From a virus (taxonomy: Duplodnaviria > Caudoviricetes), in IMG/VR virus record IMGVR_UViG_3300023048_000002, positions 107,341 through 171,340 of that record: a DNA stretch of 64,000 bases; one strand, 5' to 3'. The notes below the pieces were generated by a model. The model worked only from the letters and a program-made list of their open reading frames with translations, had not been told where the DNA came from and ran no database searches. This document shows positions 15,301 to 25,513 of the stretch, one piece after another (within the stretch, counting starts at the first letter, position 1; every line of letters starts with the position of its first letter). The position numbers were made by a program, and so were the translations under genes.

Positions 15301-15522
15301 CTATTTATTGTCAGTGGGGGAAATTCCCATAGACTTTATTAATCGTCTAGCCCATTTAATTGGTGATGTTACACTATTTTGACGATTTAATTTTTCTTGA
15401 GATTCTTGAGATTCTTGAACCATCAAAGCAAGACCTAATAGTTCAGCACGCCTTGGATGAAGTTTCTCACCCTTAATGTTGTCTATTACTTCTTCTATAG
15501 TAAGAAGTGAGTTCGTTTTCAT
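15301..15522 (-). CDS. hypothetical protein
   Basis: 73-aa ORF coupled to the upstream gene (ATGA overlap). Confidence 0.65.
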   Translation of the reverse strand: MKTNSLLTIEEVIDNIKGEKLHPRRAELLGLALMVQESQESQEKLNRQNSVTSPIKWARRLIKSMGISPTDNK

Positions 15523-18721: not shown

Positions 18722-18752
18722 AAAAAAACTCTTAGGATATCCTAAGAGTTTT
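18722..18752 (-). terminator. terminator ending the large tRNA array
   Basis: AAAACTCTTAGGA/TCCTAAGAGTTTT followed by T tract. Confidence 0.8.
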
Positions 18753-18757
18753 AGTGT

Positions 18758-18832
18758 TGGGGACCACGGAGAGGATCGAACTCTCTTATTCTGATTCACA
18801 GTCAGATACATTACCATTATGATACGTGGAAC
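18758..18832 (-). tRNA. tRNA-His (GTG)
   Basis: TCTGA-CTGTGAA-TCAGA, G-1/C73, CCA; two acceptor-stem mismatches. Confidence 0.8.
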
Positions 18833-18840
18833 ATATAACT

Positions 18841-18932
18841 TGGTGGTTCCTGTAGGATTCGGACCTACATCGTTCGGTTATCTGCCGATCATGTCTTATA
18901 AGGACACCGCACTACCATTGTGCTAAGGAACC
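18841..18932 (-). tRNA. tRNA-Ile (TAT) with long variable arm
   Basis: GTGTC-CTTATAA-GACAT; V arm TCGG-CAGATAA-CCGA; CCA. Confidence 0.85.
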
Positions 18933-18937
18933 GTAAT

Positions 18938-19014
18938 TGGGAGTCGGTAGTAGGTAACGAACCTACATCTGCAACTACTACCGCTGCATGTTCTACAATT
19001 GAACTACACCTATC
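18938..19014 (-). ncRNA. atypical tRNA-like gene (anticodon not assignable)
   Basis: D arm GTTC/GAAC, T arm GTAGG-TTCGTTA-CCTAC, 6-bp anticodon stem with GGTAGTA loop, irregular acceptor, CCA. Confidence 0.6.
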
Positions 19015-19021
19015 ATAAAAA

Positions 19022-19098
19022 TGGCTCTTCGGGTGAGATTCGAACTCACGATCCTCTGATTAACAGTCAGATGCATTAGGCCGCTATGCTACCGAAGA
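19022..19098 (-). tRNA. tRNA-Asn (GTT)
   Basis: TCTGA-CTGTTAA-TCAGA, G73-CCA. Confidence 0.92.
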
Positions 19099-19104
19099 AT
19101 AAAC

Positions 19105-19180
19105 TGGCGATCCGGGTGGGGCACGATCCCACGACCCCAAAATTAACAATTTTGTGCTCTACCAACTGAGCTACCGAATC
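19105..19180 (-). tRNA. tRNA-Asn (GTT)
   Basis: CAAAA-TTGTTAA-TTTTG, G73-CCA. Confidence 0.9.
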
Positions 19181-19187
19181 ATAAAAC

Positions 19188-19279
19188 TGGTGGATGTGAC
19201 AGGATTTTCGCCTGTACTACTGCGGCAGGTTGCGTCATCGGCTTCCTGACGTAGTGTCTTAAACTTAACTTACACACCC
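19188..19279 (-). ncRNA. tRNA-like gene with non-canonical core
   Basis: Acceptor GGGTGTG/CACATCC-A-CCA, T-like arm ACAGG-CGAAAAT-CCTGT, internal CGTCA-9nt-TGACG hairpin. Confidence 0.6.
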
Positions 19280-19295
19280 ATAACTATTTGTGGAA

Positions 19296-19428
19296 TGGTT
19301 GGAATGGTTGGAATTGAACCAACATCACTGGCCTATAAGATCGAATCGTTGTCATTTGACCGCCTAAGCGTCTACCTAAGTAGAAACGATCTTTTGCCTA
19401 GCGCTCTACCTATTGAGCTACTATTCCA
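19296..19428 (-). ncRNA. tRNA-scaffold RNA with ~63-nt branched insert replacing the anticodon loop
   Basis: Canonical D arm GCTC-AATAGGTA-GAGC, T arm GTTGG-TTCAATT-CCAAC, acceptor and CCA; insert folds into a four-way junction. Confidence 0.7.
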
Positions 19429-19440
19429 TAAAACTAAATC

Positions 19441-19515
19441 TGGCAGAGCTAACGGGAATCGGACCCGTTTCTTATCCGTGACAGGGATAAATAATAACCA
19501 ATATACCATAGCTCT
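19441..19515 (-). tRNA. tRNA-Asp (GTC)
   Basis: TATCC-CTGTCAC-GGATA, G73-CCA. Confidence 0.88.
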
Positions 19516-19524
19516 GTAAAACTT

Positions 19525-19740
19525 TTAATCTTTCTTAATCCAAGCTAACTTAAGATGTGAAACTGGCTTATAGCCTGCATCAATTAACTCTTGTTCAGTT
19601 GGCCCATTCTTTGCAGCTTCAATATAGTCTTGCAAAGGTTTAGGGTCCATAGACTGAACACTTAGTAATTCTTCAGCAAACTTTCGTGGAATATCTATAC
19701 GAAGCTGTTTGATCAATTCTTTACGTTCTTCTTTTGTCAT
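19525..19740 (-). CDS. hypothetical protein
   Basis: 71-aa ORF inside the tRNA array. Confidence 0.65.
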   Translation of the reverse strand: MTKEERKELIKQLRIDIPRKFAEELLSVQSMDPKPLQDYIEAAKNGPTEQELIDAGYKPVSHLKLAWIKKD

Positions 19741-19754
19741 ATTTTTCTCTAAAT

Positions 19755-19839
19755 TGGTGGGACGCGCAGGAGTCGAACCTGCCTAGAACTTTCGTTCGCT
19801 GATTAAGAGTCAGATGCACAACCGCTATGCCAGCGTCCC
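19755..19839 (-). tRNA. tRNA-Lys (CTT) with variable arm
   Basis: Loop CTCTTAA; V arm GAAC-GAAA-GTTC; CCA. Confidence 0.85.
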
Positions 19840-19844
19840 AAATT

Positions 19845-19919
19845 TGGCGGAACATACGGGGATCGAACCCGTCTCAGCGCATAGACAGTGCGCCAGCCTC
19901 ACCAGATGCTTCATGCTCC
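19845..19919 (-). tRNA. tRNA-Asp (GTC)
   Basis: GCGCA-CTGTCTA-TGCGC, G73-CCA. Confidence 0.88.
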
Positions 19920-19920
19920 A

Positions 19921-20112
19921 TTAAAAATTTTTCTTCTTAAGTTGATCTAACTTTCGCTGACCAACATTACTTAATGAATTAAGAATTTCTTTATCAATTT
20001 CATGTAAAACAGCATCTACGATATGTCGAGTGCCTTTCTTTAATTGTTCTTCGGTGAACATTGGATACTTTTTTGCCAATTGATCTATTTCTTCAAATGT
20101 TATTTCAAACAT
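19921..20112 (-). CDS. small protein with major-capsid-like motif (EIDKEIL)
   Basis: 63-aa ORF, AAGGA RBS. Confidence 0.6.
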   Translation of the reverse strand: MFEITFEEIDQLAKKYPMFTEEQLKKGTRHIVDAVLHEIDKEILNSLSNVGQRKLDQLKKKNF

Positions 20113-20128
20113 TTTTTATCCTTTAATG

Positions 20129-20205
20129 TGGTGGTTCCTATAGGTTTCGCACCTATGACCTCACGGTTATCAGCCATGCGCTCTAACTATCTGAGCTAAG
20201 GAACC
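20129..20205 (-). tRNA. tRNA-Ile (GAT)
   Basis: CATGG-CTGATAA-CCGTG, CCA. Confidence 0.92.
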
Positions 20206-20214
20206 ATTTAAAAC

Positions 20215-20300
20215 TGGTGTAAGCGGTTGGATTCGAACCAACGTTTCCGCTAGGAGGCAGATTTACAGTCTGCTGGCATAAACCACTCGCCCACGCTTAC
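20215..20300 (-). tRNA. tRNA-Tyr (GTA)
   Basis: GCAGA-CTGTAAA-TCTGC, V arm, CCA. Confidence 0.92.
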
Positions 20301-20308
20301 ATAATTAT

Positions 20309-20533
20309 TTAATCTAAATCACAGTCGCTAATTTTATTATCTTTCATTAGATTCTTCAAAGCTTCAATCATCGGTTTATCGATATCTGCCTGAGTTACAC
20401 CAATCTTGGCGAACTCTATCATGATTTCTTCTTTTAAGATTCTAGCTAATTCATCTTCTACATCAATTCCTAATTCAGTTAAACGTTGAATATCTTCATC
20501 TGAAATTTTCTTATCTGACATAGTACTTTCCAT
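20309..20533 (-). CDS. small protein with major-capsid-like motif (GIDVEDELARILKEEI)
   Basis: 74-aa ORF with its own TTGACA-17-TATCAT promoter (~20542-20570). Confidence 0.6.
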   Translation of the reverse strand: MESTMSDKKISDEDIQRLTELGIDVEDELARILKEEIMIEFAKIGVTQADIDKPMIEALKNLMKDNKISDCDLD

Positions 20534-20583
20534 TTTTTATCATGATATCGAGCTATAAGCTGGTTGTCAATGATAATTTGAAT

Positions 20584-20659
20584 TGGTGAAGTCGATTGGA
20601 ATCGAACCAACGACGCGAACCTTTTCAGGGTTCCGCTCTACCAACTGAGCTACGACTTC
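20584..20659 (-). tRNA. tRNA-Phe (GAA)
   Basis: GAACC-CTGAAAA-GGTTC, CCA. Confidence 0.92.
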
Positions 20660-20808
20660 ATATTCTTCCAGTGTATCTTACAATCATTACGATTAACAAG
20701 TACTGGGATTTTCATATCTGGATTATCTTTCAACTCTTGAACAAGACGTTCGCGCTTTTTTCGCTGCAATTTATCCCATTCTTCTTTCGACAAGAATTTA
20801 ATATCCAT
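20650..20808 (-). CDS. hypothetical protein (52 aa, MDIKFLSKEEW...)
   Basis: Read by hand; GAGGT RBS; TTGACA-16-TAAGAT promoter at 20821-20848; stop overlaps the tRNA-Phe 5' end. Confidence 0.55.
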   Translation of the reverse strand: MDIKFLSKEEWDKLQRKKRERLVQELKDNPDMKIPVLVNRNDCKIHWKNMKS

Positions 20809-20857
20809 TTCTACCTCTACATCTTACAATGGTTATTTTCATTGTCAAGTTTTAATT

Positions 20858-20948
20858 TGGTGGGTGAGGACGGATTCGAACCGCCAACGCTTTTTAAAGT
20901 CCTGTTTTACAGACAGGTGTGACACTTACCAATAGTCACCACTCCCCC
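20858..20948 (-). tRNA. tRNA-Tyr (GTA) with enlarged D arm
   Basis: CCTGT-CTGTAAA-ACAGG; D stem GTGAC/GTCAC; CCA. Confidence 0.85.
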
Positions 20949-20965
20949 ATTACGGTATTTAAATT

Positions 20966-21040
20966 TGGTGGGTCTGGTGAGAATTGAACTCACTACGGTC
21001 GGATTAAAAGTCCGGTGCCTATCCATTTAGCTTCAAACCC
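20966..21040 (-). tRNA. tRNA-Lys (TTT)
   Basis: CGGA-CTTTTAA-TCCG, CCA. Confidence 0.9.
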
Positions 21041-21080
21041 AAATTTCGTTTTCAATTGTTAAACAACATTTTGTAGCAAT

Positions 21081-21105
21081 AAAAAAGCCCGCTTTTCGCG
21101 GGCTT
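21081..21105 (-). terminator. attenuator terminator upstream of the tRNA array
   Basis: AAGCCCGC-GAAAA-GCGGGCTT-TTTT, between the promoter and the first tRNA. Confidence 0.85.
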
Positions 21106-21131
21106 CTTTTCTGTTCCTTGTGGAGGGAGAT

Positions 21132-21230
21132 TTACATCTCTTGCGTTCCACTTCCTTCAGATAAAGAAGCACCATGACTATTTTTATAATCATTATTATG
21201 ATCGAAGTTTTTAATAAACTTGTTATTCAC
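21132..21230 (-). CDS. attenuator leader peptide MNNKFIKNFDHNNDYKNSHGASLSEGSGTQEM
   Basis: GTG start, weak GGA RBS, TAA stop; codons 2-17 all N/K/F/I/D/H/Y, matching the downstream tRNAs; contains the antiterminator strand. Confidence 0.75.
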   Translation of the reverse strand: MNNKFIKNFDHNNDYKNSHGASLSEGSGTQEM

Positions 21231-21258
21231 TGGGTGCGTCCGTTTGGTTAGTGGAGGA

Positions 21259-21307
21259 ATCTTAACATGATATTCTATCTTGTCAAGTCCTGTTAAATCT
21301 ATTTATA
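21259..21307 (-). promoter_or_regulatory. tandem late (TATAAATA) and sigma70 promoters for the leader/tRNA array
   Basis: TATAAATA at 21300-21307; TTGACA-16-TAAGAT with TGn extension at 21259-21286. Confidence 0.7.
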
Positions 21308-21808: not shown

Positions 21809-24415
21809 TTATGCTGGCTTAAATGCTGCCATTAACACTGCTGTATCAACTGTTCCACTTGCTGTCCACGATCCACTATAAGAGCCAATTGTTGAAGCTC
21901 TCGTATATGATGTTGCACCAACAACATAACCAAGGCTTGTTAATTCATTGACTTTAGTGTAGCCAGTGCTTGGGGTACATGTAATGGTTGCTGCGTAAGA
22001 GTTTACACCAATGAAGCTGAATACTAGTCCACCAGCTACTGCTGTTGCTACTGCTGTTCCTGTGAATGGGGAAGTGCTGGTAGCTACTGTGCTGAAACTA
22101 TCTAAAGCTATACCATTTCCATTTCCACCTGTAATAACTTCAGTCATCATCACTGATGGGTAGTCACTATCATAGGTAGCTGTAATTATATGGTTAGCAC
22201 CACCTGTTCCCTTTGCACAATAGAATAAGTGAACAAATCTTGTTTGTCCAGTATTTGTTGATGACAACTGATATCCACTTACCACCGGTGTATATGTGTT
22301 AGAAAATGTGTCTGTTATCACTGGAACATAACTTGATGCTGAAGTTACAAAAACAATGAATCCACTACCGGATACTTGTGTAGTTACTGGTGCTGTTGAT
22401 CCTTTTGAATAGTCTGTATATGAACCCTGTGATGCTGATCCAATATTAAACAACATTGCTCCAACTGATGGGGTTGGGGTTGGAGATAATGAGATTGATG
22501 GTGTTATTGATGGTGTGACTGTATGTGATGCGGTTGGTGTTGGGGTTTTGGTTGTTGTCTTTGTTAATGTAATTGTTGGGGTAATTGAATGTGTTGGGGT
22601 TACTGAAATTGTTGGTGAAGGTGTTGGTGATACTCCACCTGCTGATGTTATTGATGGTGTCAATGAGAGGGTAGGTGTTACCGTTACTGAAGAAGTAACT
22701 GTAATTGAAGGCGTCAATGTTGGTGTAACAGTTACCGGCGGTGTAGATGTTACTGAAGGTGTTATGGTAATTGACGCCGTAACTGTTGGTGTTATGGATA
22801 ATGAAATTGTTTGAGTTACGGATGGTGTCTGTGTTACGGATGGTGTGATAGTTGCACTAGGTGTAGATGTGTTTGTTGATGTTATAGATGGTGTAATAGT
22901 TGGCTCAGGAGTTTGAGTCAATGAAGGTGTGTTAGAGACTGATGGTGTCAATGTTGCAGTTTGCGTAGGTGTGACAGTTGATCCCGGTGTGTTTGTCATA
23001 CTAGGAGTAATTGAAAGAGTCTGCGTCACCGTAGGTGTAGCTGTTTGTGTTGGTGTTTCAGTAGGCAATGGTGTCATGCTTAAAGATTGTGTTACTGAAG
23101 GTGTTTGTGTGTTTGATGGTGTATTAGTAACTGATGGTGTTACTGTTATAGTAGGTGTCAAGCTTAAAGATACTGTAGGTGAAACTGTTACAGAAGTCGT
23201 TACTGTAGGTGTTGGTGTTCCACTCACTCCCGGTGTATTGGTCACTGATGGTGTAAGTGTTGGTGAAACTGTTATCGATGGTGTGGCTGTTACCGTTGGA
23301 GATAGTGTGACGGATGGAGTTACACTCAATGTTGATGTAACAGTTGGTGTGGTTGTGTGTGTAGGCGTTAATGTAACAGATGGTGTTAATGTAATAGATG
23401 GTGTTAATGAAATTGTAGCTGTCATCGTAGGTGTAGCTGTTGGTGTTCCTGTTACAGCAGGTGTTAACGTCTGCGTTGCTGTAGGTGTCGTTGTTTGTGT
23501 TGAAGTCAACGTAACTGATGGTGAGTTGGTTGGTGTCAAGGTAACACTTGGCGTAGCCGTTTTTGATGGTGTTGGCGTTGGTGTAGTGGTTCTTGTTTGT
23601 GTAGGAGTTAAGAATGGAACCTGAGTTCCTGTTGGTGTTAATGAGATGTTGTCATGAGACAAATCCATACCATTAATAATGTAATAACTACCTGATGGTG
23701 GTGAGAGTTTATAGTCTGGTCCAGAATATAATGTAAAGGTTATTGACAGTGATCTGGTTGAGCCTGTATTAAAAGAGAATTCTACTCTTCCACTATCACT
23801 GTAATCACCACCAACAATACCAGTGGAATCAGCTTTAATAGAAAATAGACCTTCGTCAGAATCACCAAAAATATCAATGGTCAAATAACGTGCTGTACTT
23901 TGATTGAAATTGAAGGCGAGGTGGTAGGAAATATTTGGAATAACGTCTACTTCAGATGAGAAAGAAACAACATCTGAACTGTTACCAGCCTGCGATAATA
24001 ATTTAATACTAGATGATCCTAGAATATCAACTCTACCATTGTAGGAATTCCACTCAACAGTATCCGTTGAAAGTAGATTTAATCTTTCATAATAGCTCAA
24101 TGAAACAGTCACAGATGGGGTGACTGTTGGATATGGTGTTCGTGTTACTGGTGGACTTGGTGTTTGTGTTAGCGTTGGTGTAGGTGTGATCAAGAACTGT
24201 CTTTTAATATCAGCATAACTTTTTAATGCAAACAATTGTGATTGAGAGAACTCATCAATTGTGTTTGTATCTGACATCATAAATTTGTAATGATATTCAC
24301 CATCAACAACACCAAGTACTTCGACACAGACACCATTACGGTAGTTCAAAGAACTATCCAACATCCATGCTACATCTTTCACCCTATAAGGGTAGCCGTG
24401 AATGTTTACGTTCAT
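21809..24415 (-). CDS. large Thr/Pro/Ser-rich (mucin-like) late protein
   Basis: ~390 aa of TPS/TPT repeats between globular domains; TATAAATA at 24441-24448. Confidence 0.8.
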   Translation of the reverse strand: MNVNIHGYPYRVKDVAWMLDSSLNYRNGVCVEVLGVVDGEYHYKFMMSDTNTIDEFSQSQLFALKSYADIKRQFLITPTPTLTQTPSPPVTRTPYPTVTPSVTVSLSYYERLNLLSTDTVEWNSYNGRVDILGSSSIKLLSQAGNSSDVVSFSSEVDVIPNISYHLAFNFNQSTARYLTIDIFGDSDEGLFSIKADSTGIVGGDYSDSGRVEFSFNTGSTRSLSITFTLYSGPDYKLSPPSGSYYIINGMDLSHDNISLTPTGTQVPFLTPTQTRTTTPTPTPSKTATPSVTLTPTNSPSVTLTSTQTTTPTATQTLTPAVTGTPTATPTMTATISLTPSITLTPSVTLTPTHTTTPTVTSTLSVTPSVTLSPTVTATPSITVSPTLTPSVTNTPGVSGTPTPTVTTSVTVSPTVSLSLTPTITVTPSVTNTPSNTQTPSVTQSLSMTPLPTETPTQTATPTVTQTLSITPSMTNTPGSTVTPTQTATLTPSVSNTPSLTQTPEPTITPSITSTNTSTPSATITPSVTQTPSVTQTISLSITPTVTASITITPSVTSTPPVTVTPTLTPSITVTSSVTVTPTLSLTPSITSAGGVSPTPSPTISVTPTHSITPTITLTKTTTKTPTPTASHTVTPSITPSISLSPTPTPSVGAMLFNIGSASQGSYTDYSKGSTAPVTTQVSGSGFIVFVTSASSYVPVITDTFSNTYTPVVSGYQLSSTNTGQTRFVHLFYCAKGTGGANHIITATYDSDYPSVMMTEVITGGNGNGIALDSFSTVATSTSPFTGTAVATAVAGGLVFSFIGVNSYAATITCTPSTGYTKVNELTSLGYVVGATSYTRASTIGSYSGSWTASGTVDTAVLMAAFKPA

Positions 24416-24491: not shown

Positions 24492-24995
24492 TTACATCAA
24501 TGGTAAGTGACCTGTTATAATTTTTAATTGGCTATCCCAAGCTGGTCCGATTGCCAATGTGGTGAAGGTTGGTACACCGTGGAACTCAGTCTTGCCGGAA
24601 TCCTGAATCAGACAGTTGAGAAGACCAGCTTCCTTTGCTTTCTGTTCGATTTCAAGAAGTTCTGCTTCAGAGTTTACAGATACACAAATCTTGGTAAAGG
24701 TACCGTCGAGCCATGCTTCAAATGCAGTCCCTTCATAGTATTCAATGACCTTCTTTGTCTTACCGGTTGGACCCAAATCATTAAACCCATATTCAGTCTT
24801 TGAACGCTTCAACACAGCACCTAAACTTGCGTGGGCAACCTGTGCTGCAATCTTACCTTTACGCATATTCAAATCTTTACGTACAACGATGATCTGCTTA
24901 GCAGGACCACGTTCTACAATCATCTGTTTGCGTCTATCTTTCTGTTCTTGCTTGATGGCGGCACGTTTATCAAGGAATTTCTTTATATAACTCAT
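24492..24995 (-). CDS. pth2: peptidyl-tRNA hydrolase, Pth2 type
   Basis: KQIIVVRKDLNMRKGKIAAQVAHA, IQDSGKTEF, TTLAIGP. Confidence 0.92.
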   Translation of the reverse strand: MSYIKKFLDKRAAIKQEQKDRRKQMIVERGPAKQIIVVRKDLNMRKGKIAAQVAHASLGAVLKRSKTEYGFNDLGPTGKTKKVIEYYEGTAFEAWLDGTFTKICVSVNSEAELLEIEQKAKEAGLLNCLIQDSGKTEFHGVPTFTTLAIGPAWDSQLKIITGHLPLM

Positions 24996-25513
24996 GATTT
25001 GCTTGCCTCTAGGATTTTCATCCACTTCTGTGACTTCTTGGCAATGTATACCTGAAGTTCACTGATAATTTCTTCTGGTGTCATTGTTGGGTTCATCTTT
25101 GATACAGAATCTAGAGCGCAATTGATGACATCTGCACATTCACCGAATTCTGATTCACCCATTGGCTTGTTGATCTTACCACGCTTAATCTGAATGGCTG
25201 TTACAAGCTCGCCATGTTCTTCTGTCAGCTTATGTAGAACATCGTCTACCGTCCAGCTTGCAGGTGCAGTGCGGCCAATCTTGATGATATCTAGGAATAG
25301 ATCACGGAAGTCCGCTTTCTTCTGTTCTACTTCCAACTTCTTGAGTCGGAATTTATCAGCAGATACGAGGAATGAAACGGCTAGCATTTCTTCCATCTTA
25401 ATCGGGTCTTTGTAGGTTTCTGATCTGATCTTCTCTGGCTCAACGTAATCAAGAATTTCTTTGATCTTTTGCTTTGATAGTTCAATCGGGTTTGTGTTGG
25501 TAATGTTGCTCAT
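24992..25513 (-). CDS. MazG-like NTP pyrophosphatase
   Basis: KLTEEHGEL...GECADV motif; start at ATG 25513. Confidence 0.75.
   Translation of the reverse strand: MSNITNTNPIELSKQKIKEILDYVEPEKIRSETYKDPIKMEEMLAVSFLVSADKFRLKKLEVEQKKADFRDLFLDIIKIGRTAPASWTVDDVLHKLTEEHGELVTAIQIKRGKINKPMGESEFGECADVINCALDSVSKMNPTMTPEEIISELQVYIAKKSQKWMKILEASKS

Follow-up and report, generated by a model that had tools for sequence, protein, structure and literature searches.

A stretch of 64,000 nucleotides (nt) of DNA from a virus of the Caudoviricetes (hereafter the window; positions 107,341 to 171,340 of the IMG/VR virus record IMGVR_UViG_3300023048_000002) was analysed with respect to an element on its minus strand, between positions 21,307 and 21,081, which precedes an array of transfer RNA (tRNA) genes. 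Judged from its sequence and from related phages, the element is probably a ribosome-mediated (leader-peptide) transcription attenuator that lies downstream of two promoters and ahead of the tRNA array. It carries a short open reading frame (ORF) in which 16 consecutive codons specify only the seven amino acids served by the array, a run in clear statistical excess, and downstream an antiterminator and an intrinsic terminator that exclude one another, and these features are conserved in five sequences from three lineages. An initial annotation, made from the window alone, had proposed attenuation of the trp/his/ilv type, and this logic was supported by four orthologous leaders, in which ORF, codon bias and tRNA set recur together with both the antiterminator and the terminator.

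The window forms the final 64 kb of the 171-kb record (hereafter the contig), the completeness of which was estimated at 49%, and the same phage is represented by an assembled ENA contig of 346 kb (L008). The phage is uncultured and originates from soil, with a genome of ~346 kb and a G+C content of 39%. Its tRNA genes, 24 in the window and 32 in the contig, all lie on the minus strand and are clustered by amino acid. The array in question starts with tRNA-Lys(UUU) at 21040 and finishes with tRNA-His at 18758, in the order Lys(UUU), Tyr, Phe, Tyr, Ile(GAU), Asp, Lys(CUU), Asp, Asn, Asn, Ile(UAU), His. ARAGORN called two genes each for Lys, Tyr, Ile, Asp and Asn, one each for Phe and His, and nothing else between 18758 and 21040, which bears out the initial assignment of exactly these seven amino acids.

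Relatives were sought by an exhaustive HMMER search with the neighbouring 146-residue protein, homologues of which were found in contigs L018 (81-83% identity), L027 (46%), L031 (36%), L034 (31%) and L041 (30%). The layout of homologue, promoter block, leader ORF, terminator and tRNA array is kept in four of these five contigs (L018, L027, L031 and L034, from soil, rhizosphere and litter metagenomes), and the comparison of leaders below refers to these four together with the window.

Leader frame, sensor codons and promoters

The minus-strand sequence agrees with the GTG frame of the initial annotation, in which codons 2-17 (the sensor) fall within the seven-amino-acid set of the array without exception (16/16; Table 1). 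In none of the six frames of the 171-kb contig is there a second in-set run of this length, the maximum outside the locus being 12 codons, and composition-keeping shuffles of the 48-mer matched the in-frame run once in 20,000 trials and, in a second test, never in 50,000 (p ~5e-5 or less). By comparison, 37% of the residues in the long ORFs of the phage belong to the set, with a maximum of 14/16 in 16-residue windows and of 11/16 at N-termini. The sensor 48-mer is among the ~10 most AT-rich of the contig and includes an imperfect (NAT)6 repeat. Since this repeat also gives a 14-codon in-set run on the opposite strand, low complexity contributes to the run; however, it does not explain the whole of it.

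All five leaders start at the same position, three of them with ATG and two, among them the window, with GTG; the leader frame is the sole frame open in all five, with lengths of 29-32 codons. In-set codons before the Ser codon number 16/16, 16/16, 14/16, 16/17 and 16/17 for the window, L018, L027, L031 and L034, respectively, with shuffle p values of <2e-5, <2e-5, 1.6e-3, 2e-5 and 4e-5 in the same order. The arrays of L018, L027 and L031 cover the same seven amino acids as that of the window, with one additional CAU tRNA each in L018 and L027 and one tRNA unassigned by ARAGORN in L031, while the short L034 contig carries tRNAs for Tyr, Asp and Phe. The only Shine-Dalgarno (SD)-like sequence is a weak GGA at -11 to -9, in an interval where the genes of this phage are G-rich; across the leaders it lies 8-13 nt before the start, farther in the relatives than here.

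Table 1. Features of the leader, its promoters and the tRNA array, in window coordinates
Feature	Position	Strand	Basis or remark
T4-late-type promoter motif TATAAATA	21300..21307	-	sequence read
Sigma70-type promoter, TTGACA-16 nt-TGtTAAGAT	21259..21286	-	consensus scan; -35 TTGACA 21286-21281, TG 21267-21266, -10 TAAGAT 21264-21259
P1 5' strand GGA-C-GCACC	21233..21241	-	full-length minimum free energy (MFE) folds, duplex energies
Leader ORF, GTG, 32 codons + TAA	21132..21230	-	sequence read; start 21230, stop 21134-21132; frame conserved
Sensor, codons 2-17 (NNKFIKNFDHNNDYKN)	21180..21227	-	all Asn, Lys, Phe, Ile, Asp, His or Tyr
P1b hairpin AUGAUUAU-AAAA-AUAGUCAU, codons 13-19	21174..21193	-	predicted in five leaders
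Region 2 GGUGCUUCUUUAUCUG, codons 20-25	21158..21173	-	P1 3' strand and antiterminator 5' strand
Apical nested hairpins GUGGA/UCCAC and GAGAU-GUAA-AUCUC, holding the stop codon	21120..21151	-	folds
Region 3 CAGAAAAGAAGCCC	21100..21113	-	antiterminator 3' strand; overlaps terminator 5' arm
Intrinsic terminator AAAAGAAGCCCGC, loop GAAAA, GCGGGCUUUUUU	21081..21110	-	-19.6 kcal/mol
Spacer from terminator to first tRNA, 40 nt	21041..21080	-	contains TTTAACAATT at 21054-21063
tRNA array	18758..21040	-	ARAGORN; 12 genes
Array-closing terminator	18725..18752	-	terminator scan; kept in L018
Leader peptides			window VNNKFIKNFDHNNDYKNSHGASLSEGSGTQEM; L018 VNNKFINNFDHINDYKNSHGASLSEGSGN; L027 MNNVNIQNFDHNIDYKFSQGASLSDDNETQGG; L031 MNNVIFKNYIKHNDYDFNSHGASLSSGVGEG; L034 MNNVNFKNYIKHNDYDFNSHGASLLDERESI

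The two promoters that had been placed ahead of the frame are both present, the late-type motif lying one base from the position originally implied. The latter motif is kept in the relatives, in L027 as CATAAATA. The sigma70-type promoter is of the extended -10 kind, as it has TG at 21267-21266, and its transcription start would lie near 21252. Across the five leaders the promoter block (T/C)ATAAATAGATTTAACAG and CTTGACAAGA is invariant, and neither the -35 hexamer nor the length of the 16-nt spacer nor TGTTAAnnT changes, -10 positions 4-5 being the only ones that differ, a pattern of conservation expected of a real extended -10 promoter. A consensus scan recognised no promoter in the 40-nt spacer between the terminator and the first tRNA, and therefore at least tRNA-Lys(UUU) and the first tRNA-Tyr depend on read-through. 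The motif TTTAACAATT within this spacer is kept in four of the five leaders (L031 reads TTTTACAATT) despite different first tRNAs, Lys in the window and L018 and Tyr in the others. It is neither enriched nor recurrent within the window; a processing signal, a protein site and a weak promoter are possibilities.

Alternative RNA folds and their conservation

The antiterminator and the terminator are mutually exclusive, as the pairing of region 2 with region 3 consumes the terminator 5' arm. This pairing, the nested hairpins and the stop codon at their apex, as described in the initial annotation, were recovered by folding: the stem comprises 14 bp with two 1-nt bulges and encloses both small hairpins, and the stop codon lies within the loop so formed in all five leaders, 14-22 nt before region 3. 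The apical hairpin sequence varies in the relatives, yet each folds and holds the stop codon. Antiterminator stem-loops have energies of -23.8 to -29.8 kcal/mol in the five leaders, with a z score against dinucleotide shuffles of -3.6 here (two leaders tested: -3.6 and -4.8), and the region 2:region 3 duplexes have energies of -16.1 to -17.2 kcal/mol, with p values of 0.0015-0.005 against shuffled region 2 in the five leaders. L031 and L034 differ from the window in both antiterminator strands (GGGGCUUCUUUG with CAAAGAAAGCCC), the pairing being kept in a shifted register.

In all five leaders, transcripts that end before the terminator 3' arm have an MFE fold with the region 2:region 3 stem. 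The full-length RNA at equilibrium prefers the terminator together with P1. Folding with ribosome footprints masked, a check suggested at the outset, retained the antiterminator for masks over codons 2-14 and removed it for masks over codons 19-28. P1 joins a strand just before the start codon, which holds the sole SD-like GGA, to the 5' part of region 2. Every full-length fold predicts this helix, with a duplex energy of -9 to -14 kcal/mol, and L031 and L034 share one compensatory change in it, from A-U to C-G. Hairpin P1b (AUGAYUAU/AUAGUCAU), a candidate RNA polymerase pause hairpin, is predicted in every leader. Changes from U.G to C-G occur in it, and in L027 an A-U to U-A double change within it corresponds to Asn-to-Ile plus His-to-Gln substitutions. 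On a MAFFT alignment, RNAalifold recovered P1b and the terminator, whereas neither P1 nor the antiterminator in full was obtained, as these helices shift register between lineages; folds were therefore compared sequence by sequence.

That an intrinsic terminator follows the frame and precedes the tRNAs was likewise correct; its hairpin spans 21110-21081, was listed by the terminator scan from the opposite strand, and ends 40 nt ahead of tRNA-Lys. Its core, invariant in the five leaders, is AGCCCGC-GAAA-GCGGGCT, which with flanking A and T tracts constitutes a generic bidirectional module found at seven contig loci, near letter-identical between them and situated mostly right after stop codons and between convergent genes. 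The six other loci are at contig positions 15507, 22380, 50449, 89531, 103360 and 147571 (= window 40231; L002-L007). The 78 nt ending in the 5' arm were folded for all 14 strand copies of the module, and the leader copy alone had its 5' flank fully sequestered by upstream sequence (-26.5 kcal/mol); the other 13 copies reached -5 to -19 kcal/mol, and of the 14 nt 0-9 were paired in them.

Further searches did not extend the set of leaders. DNA and protein searches of phage collections with the leader and with the neighbouring 868-residue ORF gave only tRNA-Lys matches or nothing; a viral-contig locus search with the 146-residue neighbour gave no match; exact-pattern scans of viral contigs with the leader start, region 2, tRNA-Lys, the promoter block, and region 2 with the terminator gave nothing or unrelated chance matches; and a metagenome scan with the region 2 20-mer gave eight loci, all unrelated. 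This 20-mer (21154-21173, GASLSEG codons) is letter-identical to a stretch encoding RGASLSEGG in L010, L012, L014, L015 and L016, which represent one bacterial gene family in unrelated metagenome contigs, and the identity was taken as coincidence. The motif GASLSEGG is typical of acetyl-CoA hydrolase/transferase genes, to which this family may belong. Separately, a 44-residue ORF at 21193-21059, a gene-caller prediction in L009 and L018, was rejected because it traverses the terminator hairpin; its frame carries stops within the sensor of L027, L031 and L034. Although rejected as a gene, this prediction had led to L018.

Proposed mechanism and competing explanations

Under the attenuator reading, RNA polymerase starting at the early sigma70-type promoter or at the late-type TATAAATA would meet a strong intrinsic terminator before the tRNAs and, on passing it, would reach tRNA-Lys(UUU) and tRNA-Tyr, and by read-through the remaining array. 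A ribosome translating the leader would read the 16 codons for Asn, Lys, Phe, Ile, Asp, His and Tyr while RNA polymerase, coupled to it, may pause at P1b. With fast decoding, the ribosome would advance over region 2 (codons 20-25) and then to the stop codon inside the antiterminator loop; as the terminating ribosome there would sterically hinder the antiterminator, region 3 would stay free, the terminator would form and transcription would stop. If an aminoacyl-tRNA of the set were scarce, we infer that the ribosome would stall upstream of region 2 (codons 2 to ~15) with P1 held open, and region 2, thus freed, would capture the emerging region 3 and sequester the terminator 5' arm, so that polymerase would enter the tRNA genes. 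The physiological signal would be the supply of these aminoacyl-tRNAs, and the outcome a negative feedback fitting the phage tRNA output to the decoding demand for these codons.

As for the purpose of such a circuit, array and sensor share the amino acids whose codons are AT-rich (Phe, Tyr, Ile, Asn and Lys, to which Asp and His are added). The simplest purpose that fits, simpler than counter-defence, is therefore demand-matched tRNA supply for AT-rich codons in a phage of 39% G+C, which the circuit may provide. PrrC and PARIS are anticodon nucleases cutting tRNA-Lys, and colicin E5-like nucleases and the retron Ec78 PtuAB cut the GUN-anticodon tRNAs for Tyr, His, Asn and Asp. Cleavage by such an enzyme would stall ribosomes even on single sensor codons, and the leader could then act as an alarm for catastrophic loss of host tRNA, an inducible counter-defence switching on nuclease-resistant phage tRNAs, as the initial annotation proposed. 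We consider this variant unlikely. The set does include anticodon nuclease targets, the single-copy sensor codons would suit all-or-none depletion better than graded starvation, and a conserved peptidyl-tRNA hydrolase gene (PTH2, described below) lies nearby.

Several observations weigh against attenuation by a translating ribosome, and the caveats attached to the initial annotation concerning the weak ribosome-binding site and the internal promoters were correct. The ribosome-binding site is limited to the GGA, which doubles as a strand of helix P1, and the start codon here is GTG. Ile, Tyr and His are each represented by a single sensor codon, so sensitivity to a mild shortage would be low. 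The agreement between leader codons and array, complete in the window, is imperfect in the relatives, where Val GUA at codon 4 (three leaders) and Gln CAA (one leader) lie outside the set and no tRNA matching them was found in the arrays. P1 alone is not significant (p 0.09-0.25). The ribosome-free truncated fold already favours the antiterminator, which leaves the default state of an untranslated leader ambiguous, and termination may therefore depend on active translation and not on P1. Two sigma70-like promoters inside the array (20848-20821 and 20570-20542) could supply the distal ten tRNAs independently. No leader was found before the other six tRNA groups of the contig that were examined; in L041 another gene directly follows the homologue of the 146-residue protein, without a leader; and in the more distant kin L019-L026, identified through the M23 peptidase gene and compared over 12-kb stretches, tRNA arrays occur, yet no terminator lies in the 100 nt ahead of a tRNA. 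The leader comparison itself is a small set of five sequences. Finally, constraint on the RNA alone can explain part of the conservation, because synonymous-looking changes strengthen helices or lie in bulges.

This last point bears on the explanation that has, in our estimate, a small but real probability, namely that the element is a conditional terminator or RNA switch set by a non-ribosomal factor (a phage or host protein, an RNA, or transcription kinetics), or the source of a terminated small RNA of ~170 nt, the open frame and its composition being by-products of an AT-rich, weakly structured 5' half. P1b, region 2:region 3 and the terminator are indeed the best-conserved parts, the GGA of the weak SD belongs to helix P1, the His-to-Gln substitution in L027 is one half of a compensatory pair, and T4 encodes small stable RNAs within its tRNA region. 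The comparison with L018 speaks to both sides. The neighbouring gene differs by 10.5, 7 and 21% at codon positions 1, 2 and 3, and the sensor shows five changes, of which four are at third positions and all five stay in-set, with a chance of ~0.05 for each pattern; codons 15-28 and the terminator stem carry no substitution, and region 3 differs by one inserted A. However, two of the five sensor changes, both at third positions, convert U.G to C-G in predicted hairpins, and coding and RNA constraint are for this reason not fully separable. The synonymous change AAT to AAC at codon 2 was present as well in a 151-nt fragment among the short contigs assembled from four sequencing runs, another of which is L009 itself; no RNA dataset was among the runs listed for the locus. 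An RNA switch would leave several features unaccounted for: AT-richness is insufficient for the codon bias in any of the five leaders, as the composition-keeping shuffles indicate; TTA, ATG, GAA, AGA, ACA and stop codons are avoided in a single frame while the other two frames carry stops; an ATG or GTG start is held at one position; and the stop codon always falls inside the antiterminator loop. Nor did any Rfam family score above its threshold, and there was no T-box match.

An ordinary gene for a small protein of 29-32 residues, with its own promoter and terminator and with the tRNAs expressed by leak-through or from an unrecognised promoter, is quite unlikely. In such a case the match with the tRNA set would mirror the general AT-rich amino-acid usage of the phage, and conservation of the ORF, its start and the peptide parts MNN, HN.DY and S[HQ]GASL, the presence in the array of other small ORFs with their own promoters, and conservation of TTTAACAATT between the terminator and the first tRNA would all be in keeping with it. 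The conserved peptide positions (N-D-Y, S-H, G-A-S-L), however, are exactly those that fall in the P1b, P1 and antiterminator helices. The other residues change in chemically radical ways (D/I, H/K, K/D, F/N/I) yet stay in-set and are never swapped to Glu, Arg, Leu or Met, changes that a folded peptide would permit, and the C-terminus and the length vary. Neither the leader peptides nor the small ORFs beside them gave a significant match in PHROG or Pfam, TTTAACAATT does not recur in the window, and neither the conserved, specific complement to the terminator arm in region 2:region 3 nor the stop codon within the antiterminator loop would be explained by a protein gene.

A chance arrangement, an AT-rich and partly repetitive intergenic stretch beside a generic terminator, is highly improbable. 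The AT content of the 48-mer, among the highest of the contig, the opposite-strand run given by its repeat and the reuse of the terminator module would favour it, but the orthologues largely refute it: conservation of the elements extends over three lineages with a flanking protein only 31-46% identical to that of the window, the shuffle statistics reject coincidence in every leader, and the terminator copy is the outlier among the 14 strand copies of its module.

Around the attenuator candidate, the tRNA region has further features. The other tRNA groups examined have TATAAATA, or a variant differing by one base, 9-31 nt ahead of their first tRNA, and neither an ORF nor a terminator intervenes (window 1559, 7147 and 14245; contig 4767 and 105616), and only the Lys-to-His array has ~260 nt, with a second promoter, an ORF and a terminator, between the motif and the first tRNA. 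The motif, which is not over-represented overall (16 observed vs ~23 expected), looks like a dedicated late-type promoter for tRNA groups. Four small ORFs of 52-74 residues with SD sequences lie between tRNAs of the array on the minus strand (20650-20808, 20309-20533, 19921-20112 and 19525-19740), two of them behind sigma70-like promoters. None of the four has a Pfam match, and different small ORFs occupy the corresponding places in the relatives. Three tRNA-like elements uncalled by ARAGORN are found at window positions 19191-19279, 18942-19013 and 19296-19428 (minus strand), two of them scoring 25-27 bits against the Rfam tRNA model; the first has a CCACCA end and is conserved in L018, and the third has D and T arms with ~70 nt instead of an anticodon arm. 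Among the tRNAs that ARAGORN did call, several exceed the usual length (Ile-UAU 92 nt, Lys-CUU 85 nt, Thr 90 nt, Val 83 nt).

Among the neighbouring genes, a peptidyl-tRNA hydrolase gene, PTH2 (window 24492-25025, minus strand; Pfam E = 6.6e-33), is a conserved neighbour, present also at L027:3423-3935 and L031:440-820. It lies two genes upstream of the leader in the window and L031, and in L027 directly before the 154-residue homologue. PTH2 recycles tRNA from dropped-off peptidyl-tRNA, and the gene may be functionally linked to the tRNA region. The 868-residue ORF (window 21809-24415, minus strand) has no Pfam or phage match; the gene caller of the ENA contig placed shorter genes over this interval, partly on the opposite strand, the sign of the GC skew flips here, and L031 has a 1019-residue protein with DUF5122 repeats at this position.

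Relation to known regulatory systems

The rationale of phage tRNA genes has been debated for decades; the proposals include codon compensation, making up for a host pool that decays, and evasion of anticodon nucleases. To our knowledge, regulation of their expression has hardly been addressed. Studies of compensation by phage tRNAs reportedly concern the tRNAs themselves. Attenuation is known for amino-acid genes, and a full-text literature search found no published account of tRNA genes, in phage arrays or elsewhere, being controlled by leader-peptide attenuation. If the attenuator reading is true, tRNA supply would be self-adjusting through a leader that gauges the decoding speed of the codons served by the array, and classical attenuation would extend from amino-acid metabolism to the viral decoding machinery. 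Read-through should then increase on limitation of any of the seven aminoacyl-tRNAs but not on that of Gly, Ala, Ser or Leu, which are encoded by codons 20-24 within region 2. The leader would also constitute a compact natural multi-input sensor of translation state, useful to synthetic biology.

T-box leaders bind uncharged tRNA directly, via a specifier loop and a T-box bulge and without translation. The present element resembles them in that a leader's choice between terminator and antiterminator would be tied to tRNA status and would control translation-related genes, but no T-box element was matched in Rfam at E <=1 and the antiterminator shows only two 1-nt bulges. In E. coli, the attenuator of pheST (pheM leader) senses tRNA charging and controls an aminoacyl-tRNA synthetase. 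It is alike in using leader-peptide attenuation to adjust a component of the decoding machinery by tRNA charging, and differs in targeting a synthetase, in sensing one amino acid and in serving a host gene. Phage tRNA sets as compensation for loss of host tRNAs or for anticodon nucleases are treated in two studies (PMC10264068, PMC11555353), and the present array is like the sets discussed there in covering Lys and the GUN-anticodon tRNAs for Tyr, His, Asn and Asp, known nuclease targets.

The closest resemblance in architecture is to the leader-peptide attenuators of enterobacterial operons, among which ilvGMEDA (ilvL, 32 codons, Ile/Leu/Val) and thr (thrL, Thr/Ile) are multivalent, and which also include trpL, hisL, leuL and pheL. 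The Rfam models of these leaders scored below their gathering thresholds here (Trp_leader 25.8 bits vs 41, Thr_leader 23.9 vs 55). Shared with these leaders are a promoter-proximal short ORF of ~30 codons, in which regulatory codons for several amino acids stand in a block, and a terminator 5' arm that can pair upstream; a stalled ribosome would favour the antiterminator in both. Unlike in the amino-acid operons, the genes regulated here would be phage-borne tRNA genes and not biosynthetic enzymes, and seven amino acids would be sensed, some via a single codon. In the layout of the RNA, region 2 lies inside the ORF, the stop codon lies in the loop closed by the antiterminator instead of before region 2, and the strand in the place of the classical region 1 is the 5' untranslated region with its ribosome-binding site, not the regulatory codons.

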